DNA from: Oscillospiraceae bacterium
GTDB lineage: Bacteria > Bacillota > Clostridia > Oscillospirales > Oscillospiraceae
DNA length: 64,000 nucleotides
Direction of reading: 5' to 3'
Assembly: GCA_020860205.1 (NCBI GenBank)
Contig: JAJBUU010000024.1
Span: forward strand, 18,646 to 82,645
Part shown: positions 22,419 to 63,053 of the stretch, one piece after another
How positions within the stretch are numbered: position 1 is the first letter of the stretch
Layout: the number at the start of each line of letters is the position of its first letter
The notes under the pieces: model-generated
The model's input: only the letters and a program-made list of their open reading frames with translations
What the model was told of the DNA's origin: nothing
The model's database searches: none
Translations under genes and position numbers: made by a program

Positions 22419-22459
22419 AAAAAAATCCGTGCTGCAAGATATATGCAGCACGGATTTTT
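22419..22459. terminator. Bidirectional terminator between convergent glmS and the ATPase gene
   Basis: aaaaatccgtgctgca-agatata-tgcagcacggattttt, with A/T runs on both sides. Confidence 0.65.
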
Positions 22460-22656: not shown

Positions 22657-24765
22657 CTATGCGTTGCAGGGCGTGTCCGCAGTCGGAGCGCCGCGCTCGA
22701 TCAGATTGCTCATGCTCTGGAGGGTGATGAGCAGGGTGGATGTGTTGTGCAGCAGCGCGGAGGTCGTCGGCTGAATGACGCCGGCCACGCCGAGCGCGAT
22801 CAATGCGCCGTTGATGCCAAGGATCAGCCGATAGTTCCGGTTGATCCGCTGCATCATCGCCTGGCTCAGCGTCCGCAGATTGACAAGCTCCCGCAGGTCG
22901 TCCGCTGCGATCATGATGTCGGCGATCTCCCGCGCGATTTGCGCGCCGTCGCTGATTGCGATTCCGACATTGGCGGCGGAGAGGGCAGGGGAATCATTGA
23001 TGCCGTCCCCGACCATCACGACCACGCCGCCGCGCGCCTGTTCACGCCGCACAAAGCTGGCTTTGTCTTCCGGAAGCACCTCCGCATGGTATTCGTCCAC
23101 GCCGATTTTTGCGGCGATTGCGGCGGCTGTGCGTTCGCTGTCGCCGGTCATCATCACGATTTTTCGGAATCCGGCTGCCCGCAGCGCGCGAATCACATCC
23201 GGCGCCTCCGGACGGATCGGGTCCTCGATGCAGATGACAGCCGCCAGAACGCCGTCTATCGCCATGTAAAGATGGGAATATTGGAGCGGCAGCGATTCAA
23301 ACCTGTCATGATATTGCGACTGAATCGTGCAGCCCTCGTCCTCAAATACGAAATGGTGACTGCCGATCACCACACGCTTGTCCTCCACATAGGAAGCAAT
23401 CCCATGGGCAACGATGTAATCCACCTTTGAGTGCATTTCGCTGTGCTGTATGCTGCGGTCACTGGCCGCTTTAACGACTGCATTTGCCATAGAATGTGGG
23501 AAATGCTCCTCCAGACAGGCCGCAATGCGCAGCAGCTCCTCCTCGCTGCTGTCGCAGAACGGGATGATTTCGCGCACAGTTGGGGTCGCCTTTGTCAGCG
23601 TGCCGGTCTTGTCGAACACAATCGTGTCGGCCACCGCCATTGCTTCCAGAAATTTCCCGCCCTTCGCTGTAATCTGTCCGGCGCTTGCCTCACGGATCGC
23701 GGAGAGCACCGTGACCGGCATCGCCAGCTTCAGCGCGCAGGAGAAGTCAACCATCAGTACGGAAAGCGTTTTTGTCACGTTGCGGGTGAGCAGCCAGACG
23801 AGCACCGTTCCCGCAAGGGTATAGGGAACGAGCCGGTCAGCCAGATGCTCCGCGCGGCTTTCCACTGCCGATTTCAGCTTTTCCGTATCCTCGATCATGC
23901 GCACGATTTTTTCATATTTCGTAGCGCCGGAGACACTTTTTACCCGGAAAGTCAGCTCGCCTTCCTCCACAACAGTACCTGCGTAGACTTCTCCGCCAAT
24001 GTGCTTTGCAACGGGCAGGCTCTCGCCGGTCAGCGACGCCTGATTGACTGTGGCCTCACCTGCCGTGACCGTGCCGTCAAACGGAATCATGCTGCCTGCG
24101 CCGACAACGGCCAGATCGCCCGCCTGAACCTGCGCGCTGTTGACCAGAACGCGCTGGGGCCCCGCCTGAATCCAGACCTTTTCGATGTTGAGCGACATAC
24201 TCCGCGCCAGATCGCCGACGGATTTTTTGTGCGTCCAGTCCTCCAGCGTTTCACCGATCTCCAGCAGGAACATGACCGAGCCTGCGGTTTCAAAGTCCCC
24301 GCGAAGGAGGGAAACCGTGATTGCCGTCGCGTCGAGAACCGGAACCTCCAGCCTGCGATCTCGCAGACAGCGCAGTCCGGCGCGGACATAGCCGAGCGCC
24401 TTGTAGATGCGGATGGCGATGCGCAACGGATAGGGGAGGAGCTTCGTTGCAAAATGTATCAGAACTTTTGTCGTCAGCTTTTCCCGAAATTCCGCGCTCA
24501 GCGCCCGCCCGGAATGCTCCATGACGTGCTCCGGCACGGAAATGCTGTCCAGGGAAGCTGTCCGCAGCGCCTCGATCACATCCGCGCCGTCTCCGGAAAA
24601 CTCGATTGCGGCGTCTGCGGTTTGTTCATAGACCTTGACCTTTTTGACGCTGGGACTGGTCTTGAGGTAATATTCCAGCGTATCCGCTTCCTGAAAGCTG
24701 AGCGCGTTCCGCGCAAGATGTACGCGGATTCTGCCCTCAATGCAGTGTTTAATATAAAATTTCAT
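22657..24765 (-). CDS. P1B-type heavy-metal ATPase with non-canonical SCA TM motif
   Basis: 702 aa. DKTGTLT, MTGD, GDGINDSPAL. The TM4 position reads VDFSCALKLAMP (S342-C343-A344 = nt 23734-23742) instead of CPC. The N-terminal ferredoxin-like domain has no CxxC. Confidence 0.9.
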   Translation of the reverse strand: MKFYIKHCIEGRIRVHLARNALSFQEADTLEYYLKTSPSVKKVKVYEQTADAAIEFSGDGADVIEALRTASLDSISVPEHVMEHSGRALSAEFREKLTTKVLIHFATKLLPYPLRIAIRIYKALGYVRAGLRCLRDRRLEVPVLDATAITVSLLRGDFETAGSVMFLLEIGETLEDWTHKKSVGDLARSMSLNIEKVWIQAGPQRVLVNSAQVQAGDLAVVGAGSMIPFDGTVTAGEATVNQASLTGESLPVAKHIGGEVYAGTVVEEGELTFRVKSVSGATKYEKIVRMIEDTEKLKSAVESRAEHLADRLVPYTLAGTVLVWLLTRNVTKTLSVLMVDFSCALKLAMPVTVLSAIREASAGQITAKGGKFLEAMAVADTIVFDKTGTLTKATPTVREIIPFCDSSEEELLRIAACLEEHFPHSMANAVVKAASDRSIQHSEMHSKVDYIVAHGIASYVEDKRVVIGSHHFVFEDEGCTIQSQYHDRFESLPLQYSHLYMAIDGVLAAVICIEDPIRPEAPDVIRALRAAGFRKIVMMTGDSERTAAAIAAKIGVDEYHAEVLPEDKASFVRREQARGGVVVMVGDGINDSPALSAANVGIAISDGAQIAREIADIMIAADDLRELVNLRTLSQAMMQRINRNYRLILGINGALIALGVAGVIQPTTSALLHNTSTLLITLQSMSNLIERGAPTADTPCNA

Positions 24766-24828
24766 GCGTTTTCAAACCCTCTATACAAAAACAGGATAAC
24801 TGCAAAGAACGGGATCTGTCTTATTCGA

Positions 24829-24857
24829 TAAAAAAAGCGGAGCCGGGCGGCTCCGCT
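24829..24857 (-). terminator. Intrinsic terminator between the 84-aa gene and the ATPase
   Basis: On the minus strand: agcggagcc-gccc-ggctccgct (9-bp stem) followed by TTTTTTT, about 65 nt before the ATPase start. Confidence 0.6.
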
Positions 24858-24914
24858 TCGCTTGAGACAACACCGTTCTTATGATGCGGTGAAGCCCGAA
24901 CCGTCAGGTTCGAA

Positions 24915-25169
24915 TCATTCGCCGTCCACAATCTGCGCCGCTGCCGCGTCATCCCGCTTTTGGTTGATCGACTTTGCCTCCGCCAGAATATCCTCGCAGT
25001 TCTCCTGCAGCGTGGTAGATGTCTTTGTCACGCAGTCCTTTGCGCGCAAAACCGCGGCGGTGCAGTGTGCATAGGTTTTCTTTGCGTCGTTGCTCGCAAG
25101 CAGCTTGATCCCTGCGGTTCCGAACAAAACGCCGCCTGCAAAGAGTGCGGCTTTTTCCCAGTTTGTCAT
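24915..25169 (-). CDS. Small membrane-anchored helical protein with 3 Cys (DUF1490-like architecture)
   Basis: 84 aa, GGAGG RBS. N-terminal TM helix (AALFAGGVLFGTAGIKLL) then a charged helix carrying C36, C46, C58. Lies immediately upstream of the P1B ATPase. Confidence 0.65.
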   Translation of the reverse strand: MTNWEKAALFAGGVLFGTAGIKLLASNDAKKTYAHCTAAVLRAKDCVTKTSTTLQENCEDILAEAKSINQKRDDAAAAQIVDGE

Positions 25170-25184
25170 ATGATAATGTCCTCC

Positions 25185-25265
25185 TTATTTGTGCCTGTAG
25201 CCTGTGTAGAACAGCATCGCAAAACAAAACAGCGCTGCCATTGCCCAAAATCTGTGTTGCTTCAT
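25185..25265 (-). CDS. Possible 26-aa hydrophobic micro-ORF
   Basis: MKQHRFWAMAALFCFAMLFYTGYRHK, ending 15 nt before the 84-aa gene start. RBS is weak or too close, so it may be only leader RNA. Confidence 0.2.
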   Translation of the reverse strand: MKQHRFWAMAALFCFAMLFYTGYRHK

Positions 25266-25338
25266 TGCTCCGATTCGCACACCTTCACATAAAATTCAAA
25301 ATGAAAGCTCCCGCTGTTGGGCGGGTTCATTTTCCAGC

Positions 25339-25367
25339 ATTTTAGCACCTGAAACCGGCATTGTCAA
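25339..25367 (-). promoter_or_regulatory. Sigma-A promoter for the small-protein transcript
   Basis: Minus strand: TTGACA (25362-25367), 17 nt spacer, TAAAAT (25339-25344). A second identical GTTGACAATGC lies 13 bp upstream. Confidence 0.5.
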
Positions 25368-25419
25368 CTTGCATTGTCAACAGTTTTCGCCAGTTTTTGC
25401 TGCGCCCGTTTTTCCATGC

Positions 25420-25448
25420 TTGACAAACGGGGAGCGCGTCGGTATAAT
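25420..25448 (+). promoter_or_regulatory. Consensus sigma-A promoter for the valS T-box leader
   Basis: TTGACA (25420-25425), 17 nt spacer, TATAAT (25443-25448). Confidence 0.7.
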
Positions 25449-25454
25449 AATCTG

Positions 25455-25735
25455 GCAATTCGGCTTTGATGAGCAGGAGTAGTCGCGTTTTCCGGCGCGC
25501 AGAGAGGACACGGGTGGTGCAAGTGTCCGCCGGGACGGAATGAAGGTCGGCTCGGAGCCGCATCGGAATCTGCGCAGACAGGGGCTTTCCCGCTGCCGGT
25601 TCCGGCGTTCGCCCGCGTTAAGGGTATGAGCGTCCCTGCGCGTTTCGCGGCGGGGAAATTCAGGTGGTACCGCGCAAAAGAAGGTCGTTTTGCGTCCTGA
25701 AGCAGTCAAAGCTGACGCTTCAGGGCGCTTTTTTT
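25455..25735 (+). promoter_or_regulatory. T-box riboswitch (Val specifier) controlling valS
   Basis: Stem I elements (AGTA, AGAGA, GGTGGTGCAAG). Candidate specifier GUC at 25546-25548 in gaaGGUCg. T-box core AAATTCAGGTGGTACCGCG (25656-25674). Terminator 25692-25735 (12-bp stem plus TTTTTTT). Confidence 0.85.
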
Positions 25736-61999: not shown

Positions 62000-62350
62000 G
62001 TGGTGGAGCTTTGCACCGTACAGCACCGCCATGAGGCGGCGGTCAGCGAAATTCTGGGCAGTATGCCGGACGAGCCGGAGCTTTCGGAGATGGCAGAGCT
62101 GTTCAAGACCTTCGGAGATTCCACCCGCATCCGTATCCTTTACATTTTGTCCCACAGTGAACTATGCGTCTGTGACATCGCCGCAGTGCTGAAGCTGAGC
62201 CAGCCGGCCATCAGCTATCAGCTCAAGGCGCTCAAGCAGGCGCGGCTTGTCAAAAGCCGCCGGGACGGAAAAACGGTCTATTATTCCCTTGCGGACGACC
62301 ATGTTGGAATCATCATCGGCATGGCAAAAGAACATTTGGAGGAGAGGTAA
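62000..62350 (+). CDS. ArsR/SmtB-family metalloregulator (CadC-like)
   Basis: GTG start. ELFKTFGDSTRIRILYIL..ELCVCDIAAVL..SQPAISYQLKALK wHTH with the alpha3 CVC metal site. Confidence 0.85.
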   Translation: MVELCTVQHRHEAAVSEILGSMPDEPELSEMAELFKTFGDSTRIRILYILSHSELCVCDIAAVLKLSQPAISYQLKALKQARLVKSRRDGKTVYYSLADDHVGIIIGMAKEHLEER

Positions 62351-62357
62351 GCATCCC

Positions 62358-62576
62358 ATGAAAAAGACTTATAAGATCGAAGTGGACTGCGCGAACTGCG
62401 CAAATCTGATGGAGGCTGAAACAAAAAAAATTTCCGGCGTGGCAAATGCAGTCGTCAACTTCATGACGCAGAAAATGACTGTGGAATTTGCGGATGGAGA
62501 GGACGAAAAGGCCGTGATGAAAAGCGTACGAAAAGCCTGCAAACGGGTGGAGCCGGACTGCGAAATAGAGCTTTGA
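62358..62576 (+). CDS. Stand-alone heavy-metal-associated (HMA) domain protein
   Basis: 72 aa. MKKTYKIEVDCANCANLME...VNFMTQKMTVEF, with a CxxC in a ferredoxin-like fold resembling the N-terminal domain of CadA-type ATPases. Confidence 0.85.
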   Translation: MKKTYKIEVDCANCANLMEAETKKISGVANAVVNFMTQKMTVEFADGEDEKAVMKSVRKACKRVEPDCEIEL

Positions 62577-62634
62577 TACGCACCGCCGCCCCGGACGTCA
62601 TGCAAACGGAAGGGGCGCGCGTTTTACGCAAATA

Positions 62635-62652
62635 TATAAATCATGATTTATA
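62635..62652. promoter_or_regulatory. 18-bp perfect palindrome (candidate operator or cassette boundary)
   Basis: TATAAATCATGATTTATA, 23 nt upstream of the AT-rich ORF start. Function unknown. Confidence 0.3.
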
Positions 62653-62674
62653 TTTGAAGAAGGAGAGTAGAGTT

Positions 62675-63019
62675 GTGAATAAAGTTTTAGATACAATAAA
62701 TAACCAAAAGAACAACCATCAAAAACAAAAGATTACAAAAAGAAAAGAAAAAATAGAAGCAGAATCTGAAATAATACGAAAAAGGAAAGAAAATATACTA
62801 AAAAAGCAGGAAGATATGCAAGCAGAAAGGATGAGATTGCTTGCGCTTGATGATAAAGAGTTACTGGTTGAATTGATTTTTTCAATAAGAGGAATGTATG
62901 CACAGATTAAGGAATTGGAAACTCAACAACAACTTTTGGATGAAAGACTGGAAAAAATGGAATTTGATATTGCTTTGTTAGAAGATGAGATTGCCACACT
63001 GAATCAAAAAAATAATTGA
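62675..63019 (+). CDS. Orphan AT-rich coiled-coil protein (114 aa), function unknown
   Basis: GTG start after AAGGAGAG. VNKVLDTINNQKNNHQKQKITKRKEKIEAESEIIRKRKEN...LLDERLEKMEFDIALLEDEIATLNQKNN has a basic N-terminus and heptad-like C-terminus. Composition is about a quarter to a third G+C against GC-rich flanks. Confidence 0.5.
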   Translation: MNKVLDTINNQKNNHQKQKITKRKEKIEAESEIIRKRKENILKKQEDMQAERMRLLALDDKELLVELIFSIRGMYAQIKELETQQQLLDERLEKMEFDIALLEDEIATLNQKNN

Positions 63020-63053
63020 ATTATAATGTTCTGCCAGTAAGGAGCTGTTTTGC

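Follow-up and report, generated by a model that had tools for sequence, protein, structure and literature searches.

The window analysed here is a stretch of 64,000 nucleotides from the genome of an Oscillospiraceae bacterium (assembly GCA_020860205.1, contig JAJBUU010000024.1, positions 18,646 to 82,645 of the forward strand). Our subject is a P-type ATPase of 702 amino acids that is encoded on its minus strand together with two smaller genes, a unit that resembles the fez gene clusters of ferrosome-forming bacteria. In the direction of transcription, this unit consists of a near-consensus promoter, a micro open reading frame (micro-ORF), a fezA-like gene, a terminator-like hairpin, the fezB-like ATPase gene and a terminator. 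The current annotation of the ATPase gene, and of thousands of its homologues in gut Clostridia, goes no further than "heavy metal translocating P-type ATPase". The three genes are the following.

22657-24765, minus strand: fezB-like gene for a 702-amino-acid P-type ATPase of group P1B-6 (translation, profile matches, tree)
24915-25169, minus strand: fezA-like gene for an 84-amino-acid DUF6110 protein (Pfam PF19605, E 3e-32, 110.9 bits against a gathering threshold of 26)
25185-25265, minus strand: micro-ORF MKQHRFWAMAALFCFAMLFYTGYRHK of 26 codons upstream of fezA, with a single hydrophobic helix (conservation across loci)

In a profile search of the window proteins the ATPase matches the Pfam families E1-E2_ATPase and Hydrolase, and its score of 490 bits against the NCBIfam model TIGR01525 for heavy-metal P1B ATPases (cut-off 346.25) places it among the P1B pumps. 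The reading frame is intact and all P1B catalytic motifs are present, the TGD motif in the form MMTGD at residues 538-542. An earlier, purely sequence-based reading of this gene, referred to below as the original prediction, had named TGES, DKTGTLT and GDGINDSPAL as P-type hallmarks within the frame 22657-24765 and had placed Ser342-Cys343-Ala344 at nucleotides 23734-23742; translation confirmed the positions in both cases. The residues and segments of the pump on which the argument depends, with M1 to M6 denoting the core transmembrane helices, are listed from the N-terminus onwards.

24724-24735, minus strand: arginine-rich motif G11-R-I-R14 (context GRIRVHL), located on a beta-hairpin within the N-terminal domain; R14 invariant, R12 at least 90% conserved
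24361-24510, minus strand: two predicted amphipathic, highly charged helices, residues 86-135, replacing the helices MA and MB (AlphaFold2 model, hydropathy, charge count)
24019-24030, minus strand: TGES (T246), dephosphorylation motif of the actuator domain (translation of exact coordinates)
23734-23748, minus strand: M4 signature D340-F-S-C-A344 (context VDFSCA), with F-S-C at the C-P-C position (alignments, translation)
23599-23613, minus strand: DKTGT with the phosphorylated Asp385 (translation of exact coordinates)
22981-23010, minus strand: GDGINDSPAL (G586), hinge of the phosphorylation domain (translation of exact coordinates)
22810-22812, minus strand: Asn652 in M5, invariant (45-sequence and larger alignment)
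22735-22749, minus strand: M6 signature H673-N-T-S-T677 (HNxxT; context LLHNTST) (alignments, translation)

The register of the transmembrane metal site was established by two alignments. In a phmmer comparison with LpCopA (3rfu), MVDFSCALKLAMPV pairs with IIACPCALGLATPM, which sets the C-P-C of the copper pump opposite F341-S342-C343, and a MAFFT alignment of 111 sequences gives the same register, with D340, F341, S342, C343 and A344 facing [A/S], C, P, C and A. Phe341 thus replaces the first cysteine of the CPC motif and Ser342 the M4 proline, while Cys343 corresponds to the second cysteine. The original prediction of an SCA triplet in place of CPC therefore stands as far as the substitution is concerned, but its frame was one residue off, F341-S342-C343 being the true counterpart of CPC. 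The comparison with P1B representatives at the fourth, fifth and sixth transmembrane helices that the prediction had called for returned DFSCA, N652 and HNTST, and no canonical CPC register. With F341-S342-C343 at this position the pump does not carry the (C/S/T)P(C/H/S) motif with its M4 proline, a residue that is present in 65 of the 72 non-FezB P1B sequences of the alignment, and it is this departure from the proline motif that defines subgroup P1B-6.

As evidenced by an alignment of 45 sequences whose members extend down to 33% identity, the residues R14, V339, D340, S342, C343, A344, N652, H673, N674 and T677 are invariant, and DFSCA is therefore not a chance variant. The family is large: the window pump has 13,450 library matches at E <= 1e-30, and nearly all of the best 150 representatives of clusters at 50% carry the same three motifs, of the D[YF]SCA, HNxxT and RxR type.

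Several further columns of the alignments deserve mention in their own right. Two charged residues lie inside membrane helices and are specific to the FezB family, D145 in M1 (24332-24334) and K346 in M4 (23728-23730), where other P1B pumps have isoleucine, valine or methionine and glycine, respectively; judged from these columns they could supply one more ligand and a built-in counter-ion. The nucleotide-binding (N) domain contains a histidine cluster in residues 419-472 (23350-23511), formed by H421, H441, H445, H454 and H471, each of which is found in 35-37 of 39 FezB-like rows and is rare or gapped in the 72 other P1B pumps. The universal histidine of the SEHP motif, which locally reads EEHFPHS in the window protein, is H424. 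The N-domain histidines could form a cytosolic metal-sensing or metal-binding site. Finally, the pumps of locus L029 (a metagenome-assembled genome, MAG, of Eubacteriales) and locus L047 (Faecalimicrobium dakarense) combine FCPC[A/S] in M4 with N652 and with HN in M6. This mixture resembles CtpC, the mycobacterial 'P1B-6-like' pump, and in a tree both proteins group with the CPC pumps and not with FezB.

At its N-terminus the pump has a single cysteine (C8) within residues 1-90 and no CxxC motif, as the original prediction had noted for this domain. A Pfam HMA domain was not found here, the only trace being an HMA_2 match below threshold, at 17 bits (cut-off 30) and E 0.0045. An AlphaFold2 model with a mean predicted local distance difference test score (pLDDT) of 81 arranges the N-terminal domain as beta-beta-alpha-beta-beta-alpha. 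The two helices that follow, residues 86-108 and 112-135, have mean Kyte-Doolittle hydropathies of -0.13 and 0.34 and contain 7 and 6 charged residues, so that the model predicts six true transmembrane helices for the window FezB, the number published for FezB proteins, versus eight elsewhere.

The P1B-6 group is reportedly identical with FezB, the ferrosome ATPase, in the work of Grant and Komeili from 2020-22 and of Pi et al. in 2023. Ferrosomes are membrane-bound iron phosphate granules, and a study of Desulfovibrio magneticus, Shewanella putrefaciens and Rhodopseudomonas palustris (bioRxiv 10.1101/2020.01.10.902569) identified FezB as a P1B-6 ATPase that is enriched on them and required for making them. 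The same study defined the FezB group by D[Y/F]SCA in the fourth transmembrane helix, HNxxT in the sixth, an N-terminal RxR and six transmembrane helices, and an SCA motif is what defines P1B-6 (PMC13460109). In Clostridioides difficile, ferrosomes require the membrane protein FezA as well as FezB, the fez genes are repressed by Fur, and a fezB mutant colonises mice more poorly (PMC12574912, PMC13463818). In E. coli, C. difficile FezA and FezB alone suffice for ferrosome foci (10.1101/2025.09.22.677801). The mineral of ferrosomes is a ferrous phosphate resembling vivianite, and deletion of fezB in a fur mutant lowers cell iron to about one quarter of that of the fur mutant itself (10.64898/2026.06.16.732667).

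All of the published signatures are found in the window pump: D[Y/F]SCA, HNxxT together with the M5 asparagine, RxR without a CxxC or histidine-rich domain, and, as a prediction, six transmembrane helices. The assignment to P1B-6 made in the original prediction is thus upheld, the protein falling into the D[Y/F]SCA/HNxxT clade. Its statement that this group has no known substrate is outdated, as P1B-6 is the FezB group required for ferrosome formation in the studies cited above, and the outcome that the prediction had itself named as a refutation, placement in a characterised subfamily, has thereby come about. A close C. difficile relative was reached by sequence search with the DUF6110 protein Q189E0 of C. 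difficile 630, which adjoins the P1B6 ATPase Q189D2 (PMC9374683 Supplementary Data 1). The contig retrieved, L110, carries the DUF6110 gene and, 42 nucleotides downstream, a gene for an ATPase of 699 amino acids that, compared along the full length, is 54% identical to the window FezB (692 amino acids aligned, 74% positives, a single gap) and that shares DFSCA, HN-ST and GRIR with it. From the published description of adjacent fezA and fezB genes, with FezB a P1B6 ATPase, we take the L110 pair to be C. difficile FezA/FezB, to which the window pair is orthologous.

The phylogeny agrees with this placement. In a maximum-likelihood tree of 58 P1B pumps calculated with IQ-TREE, with generic P1B matches from a scan of the genome collection as outgroup, the pumps of the window and of C. 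difficile fall into one clade of nine rows with a support of 100/100. All 26 rows with D340 and HN lie on one side of a branch that has an ultrafast bootstrap value of 93, a Shimodaira-Hasegawa-like approximate likelihood ratio of 83 and a presence in 91% of the bootstrap trees. A P1B-6 structure was not found in the PDB by sequence or by fold search; the structures that match best, those of CopA, ZntA and CoaT, are 25-29% identical, with a best PDB sequence match at E 8e-71 and a best Foldseek match at E 1e-41. The class of the pump is already explained, and the 702-residue protein is an ordinary member of the FezB family.

The fezA-like gene lies 149 nucleotides upstream of fezB on the same strand and supplies the small GxxxG partner typical of a fez cluster. 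Its product has an N-terminal hydrophobic helix with a GxxxG motif (GGVLFG) that peaks at residues 7-25, continues as a long polar helix and ends in ...AAAAQIVDGE, with no metal-binding motif at its C-terminus. It is 54% identical to Q189E0 of C. difficile 630 over 70 amino acids. A DUF6110 gene is located immediately upstream of the pump in 10 of the 10 loci fetched from Clostridia and Collinsella, and beside none of the pumps in the proteobacterial loci fetched, which are 34-36% identical to the window FezB.

Ahead of fezA lies the micro-ORF, which occupies the same place and always has 26 codons in the loci L112, L019 (Blautia), L020 (Paralachnospira), L021 (Flavonifractor porci) and L100. 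Between the window and L112, the nearest relative of the window locus with a FezB that is 71% identical, 13 codon changes in the micro-ORF are synonymous and 4 non-synonymous, and between L100 and L021 the numbers are 12 and 2; the substitutions are mostly in third positions and therefore indicate selection at the level of the protein. The micro-protein gives a sub-threshold match to Pfam DUF6219, the sole such match in the genome, and a DUF6219-like match abuts DUF6110 in two of four other testable genomes. No DUF6219-like micro-ORF is found in the 960 base pairs upstream of C. difficile fezA, and since a similar open reading frame is missing there we did not equate the micro-ORF with the C. 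difficile gene fezX.

The signals that flank and divide the transcription unit are listed below.

25339-25367, minus strand: promoter-like TTGACA-17-TAAAAT, its -10 element preceded by TG (11 of 12 consensus matches)
about 25355-25385, minus strand: direct repeat of GTTGACAATGC, two copies 13 base pairs apart, the second containing the -35 element (sequence read)
25298-25333, minus strand: 5'-terminal hairpin of the leader, AAAATGAA-CCCGC...GCGGG-TTCATTTT (-13.8 kcal/mol, z = -2.2)
24827-24859, minus strand: terminator-like hairpin between fezA and fezB, GC-rich stem of 11 base pairs followed by T7 (-20.6 kcal/mol, z = -3.45)
about 22419-22456, no strand assigned: two-way terminator hairpin flanked on either side by A and T tracts, where fezB and glmS converge, operon end (sequence read)
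25457-25702, plus strand: T-box leader of valS (Rfam RF00230, 97.7 bits), divergent from the fez promoter (Rfam scan)

The hairpin between fezA and fezB, GAAGCGGAGCC-GCCC-GGCTCCGCTTC followed by T7, lies inside the gap of 149 nucleotides. At the same place the loci L112, L098, L099, L100, L021 and L025 have a hairpin and U-tract of unrelated sequence, so that with the window seven loci share the structure, at z-scores from -2.2 to -5.7; in the Lachnospiraceae loci and in C. difficile the gap measures 0-43 nucleotides and contains no hairpin. The leader hairpin could stabilise the 5' end of the mRNA or serve as an operator, and the GTTGACAATGC repeat, which has no counterpart in L112, could be a duplicated -35 element or a regulator site. 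An Rfam scan of the fez locus matched nothing other than the valS T-box on the opposite strand, whose leader is driven by a perfect TTGACA-17-TATAAT promoter at 25420-25448 (plus strand).

The window's genome (1.93 Mb in 70 contigs, 99% complete) encodes three P1B pumps, one DUF6110 gene, a feoA-feoA-feoB cluster for ferrous iron uptake and one regulator of the DtxR family. Neither a Fur-family gene nor a ferritin was found in it by hidden Markov model searches and by tblastn with the proteins of congeners. Of the six congeners, G001-G006, five carry a Fur-like gene of divergent sequence; a true ferritin (E about 1e-36) is present in four and a weaker match (E 9e-17) in a fifth, and none of the six has fezB, which makes the window's species the only fez carrier of the seven. 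The combination of fez with missing ferritin and Fur, seen in one species of seven, is a pattern and not a test. Likewise, a complementarity between ferritin and fez was considered and set aside, as the counts of ferritin at E <= 1e-16 in family genomes, 0 of 4 with and 6 of 21 without fez, are too small.

Upstream of feoA (C39:10528-10600, outside the window) a consensus promoter precedes a tandem pair of TTAGAGRARCCTAA boxes that occurs nowhere else in the genome and is likely the operator of the sole DtxR-family regulator (C24:21433-21810), which would be the iron sensor where no Fur was found. An operator common to the fez, feoA and dtxR promoters was rejected, the tandem TTAGAGRARCCTAA being confined to feoA. 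In C. difficile, the region upstream of fezA (L110, 3690-3830) contains an extended AT-rich stretch made up of tandem ATATATAAACTAG-like repeats, and a Fur-box-like 7-1-7 palindrome, TAATAAC-A-ATTATTA, lies about 440 base pairs upstream of the gene.

In a sample of 200 Clostridia, DUF6110 was present in 17. The FezB sequences closest to the window protein are 66-71% identical and include one from Dorea, a member of the Lachnospiraceae, whereas those of its own family reach 56-59%; together with the patchy occurrence of fezB, these figures mark the operon as accessory, and it may have been acquired laterally. A clean insertion junction was not found in the congeners, where valS and its T-box are conserved and the upstream neighbours differ (purA/purB in G001).

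The two other P1B pumps of the genome are of conventional types, and one of them starts within the window.

63054-64000, plus strand, cut by the window end: second P1B ATPase with SCPCA in M4, lysine in M5 and aspartate in M6, Zn/Cd type (alignment)

It reads ...LVISCPCALVISIP and comprises 630 amino acids in the whole genome. The original prediction had seen a canonical CPC in this protein and no redundancy with the first pump; alignment and tree agree and identify it as a Zn/Cd-type paralogue. It belongs to a Cd/Zn-type resistance unit at 62000-64000 on the plus strand, in which an ArsR/SmtB-type regulator (62000-62350), an HMA protein with a CANC motif (62364-62576) and a coiled-coil reading frame of 148 amino acids (62573-63019) precede the CPC ATPase of P1B-2 type that starts at 63054. 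The third paralogue, on another contig, is CopA-like and groups with sequences from Oscillospiraceae MAGs.

Taken together, these data make it probable, in our judgement, that the locus is a compact ferrosome (fez) operon of micro-protein, FezA and FezB with a role in iron storage. The sequence establishes the family, every signature, the anatomy of the operon and the orthology with the C. difficile pair; by analogy with the orthologues, we infer iron as the substrate, the formation of vesicles and the storage role in this organism. A single promoter would drive the membrane micro-protein of 26 amino acids, the single-pass GxxxG protein FezA, and FezB. The latter would run through a standard P-type cycle, in which Asp385 is phosphorylated and TGES serves the dephosphorylation, and would move Fe2+ out of the cytosol by way of D340, S342 and C343 in M4, N652 in M5 and H673, N674 and T677 in M6, a putative site of mixed oxygen, nitrogen and sulfur ligands that has neither the thiolate pair of CPC nor the M4 proline. 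FezB would reside with FezA in an intracellular membrane vesicle, FezA anchoring the pump or shaping the membrane, and the pumped iron would be deposited in the lumen as a phosphate precipitate, the granule serving the anaerobe as its iron store. Judged by its structure, the hairpin between fezA and fezB probably acts as an attenuator, ending part of the transcripts so that the structural FezA would be made in excess over the catalytic FezB.

Several points weigh against this assignment. For the present organism iron transport and ferrosome formation are drawn from homology, and for the P1B-6 group as a whole Fe2+ as the substrate rests on genetics and on the composition of the granules; we found no report in which Fe2+ transport by a P1B-6 pump was assayed directly. 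The fez genes are patchy, fezB being present in 3 of 24 genomes from the family and in 0 of the 6 congeners, and are accessory rather than core. The near-consensus fez promoter could be constitutive, and neither a Fur-like box nor a TTAGAGRARCCTAA box of the feoA type for DtxR is found at it, while C. difficile fez is repressed by Fur.

In a different reading, a PacL-like DUF6110 scaffold stabilises and clusters the pump in the cell membrane, and excess Fe2+, Zn2+ or Mn2+ is exported for detoxification without any organelle. A strong promoter without an operator for iron limitation suits detoxification as well as storage, all P1B pumps expel metal from the cytosol, so that both models share one topology, and the PacL papers relate DUF6110, which they describe as typically encoded with P1B6 pumps, to DUF1490 and propose an assembly in microdomains. 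We nevertheless hold such an efflux platform to be unlikely. The closest characterised orthologues, C. difficile FezA and FezB at 54% identity each, make intracellular granules, even in E. coli; the window FezA does not have the histidine-rich metal-binding tail of PacL1, and CtpC, the partner of PacL1, keeps CPC in M4, unlike the window pump. The genome moreover already has exporters of the CopA and Zn/Cd types.

Less probable again is that the same machinery handles another cargo in this lineage, for example Mn2+, Co2+ or Zn2+, loaded into a vesicle or exported. The P1B-6 substrate is deduced from genetics and granule composition, a review raises the question of ferrosome-like structures for other metals (PMC13463818), and related pumps with an HN motif, such as CtpC, have been assigned to zinc or manganese. 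However, the putative ligands DFSCA, N652 and HN-ST agree with C. difficile FezB residue for residue and are invariant across the family, and for this reason the sequence gives no grounds for a different specificity. That the protein is a degenerate ATPase, having lost transport along with the cysteine pair of CPC and the M4 proline that 65 of the 72 other P1B sequences retain and the window FezB lacks, seems to us barely credible, given an intact frame, a full set of catalytic motifs, replacement residues that are invariant in a large family and orthologues with a genetic phenotype.

Within the ferrosome reading, what is modestly new at this locus is the conserved micro-ORF, the conserved intercistronic hairpin and a host in which neither Fur nor ferritin was found. 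A more far-reaching and rather doubtful proposal, which we offer only tentatively, would be that the Oscillospiraceae-type ferrosome unit is a three-gene operon with a micro-protein of the form K-x-H-R-F-W-A-W ... T-G-Y-K-H-K and an attenuator between fezA and fezB that sets or conditionally tunes the ratio of scaffold to pump, both features undescribed in the systems studied so far, and that here it operates without Fur and replaces ferritin as the sole dedicated iron store. A gut anaerobe with a small genome that carries fez, and in which neither ferritin nor Fur was found, lends itself to the questions of whether ferrosomes can stand in for ferritin and what controls them when Fur is missing, and the micro-ORF and the hairpin could sharpen the list of minimal parts needed to engineer ferrosomes. 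A review from 2026 still terms the pair of a PacL-like protein and a P1B-6 pump "poorly understood". The literature on PacL-like proteins and P1B-6 pumps and that on the FezA/FezB ferrosomes treat the same gene pair without cross-reference, and joining the two leads to a concrete and testable function.

The relation of the window system to known ones can be set out system by system. With LpCopA (3rfu), ZntA (4umv) and the two paralogues of the same genome, the window FezB shares the actuator, phosphorylation and nucleotide-binding domains and the M1-M6 core. It is 25-29% identical to the canonical P1B-1 and P1B-2 pumps and differs from them in having FSC for CPC, HNxxT for the MxxSS or aspartate of M6, predicted amphipathic helices for MA and MB, no CxxC domain, the additional D145 and K346, and the N-domain histidine cluster. 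The PacL1-CtpC system of Mycobacterium tuberculosis likewise has the gene for a small single-pass protein, of the DUF1490 family related to DUF6110, ahead of a P1B pump, and CtpC resembles the window FezB in its HN motif in M6 and its arginine-rich N-terminus, but retains CPC in M4 and exports zinc at the cell membrane. FezABC of D. magneticus and the six-gene fez operons of S. putrefaciens and R. palustris share the FezB signatures and a small GxxxG partner with the window, and add FezC, with an HMA domain and two transmembrane helices, and other arginine-rich or GxxxG proteins, none of which is encoded at the window locus. The fezXAB genes of C. difficile come closest. Their FezA has an acidic C-terminal tail 55 residues longer than that of the window protein, fezA and fezB are separated by 42 nucleotides without a hairpin instead of 149 with a terminator-like one, and their expression is repressed by Fur, for which no gene was found in the window's genome; in both organisms, however, a DUF6110 gene is followed on the same strand by that of a P1B-6 ATPase, and each of the two proteins is 54% identical to its counterpart, FezA over the DUF6110 core.

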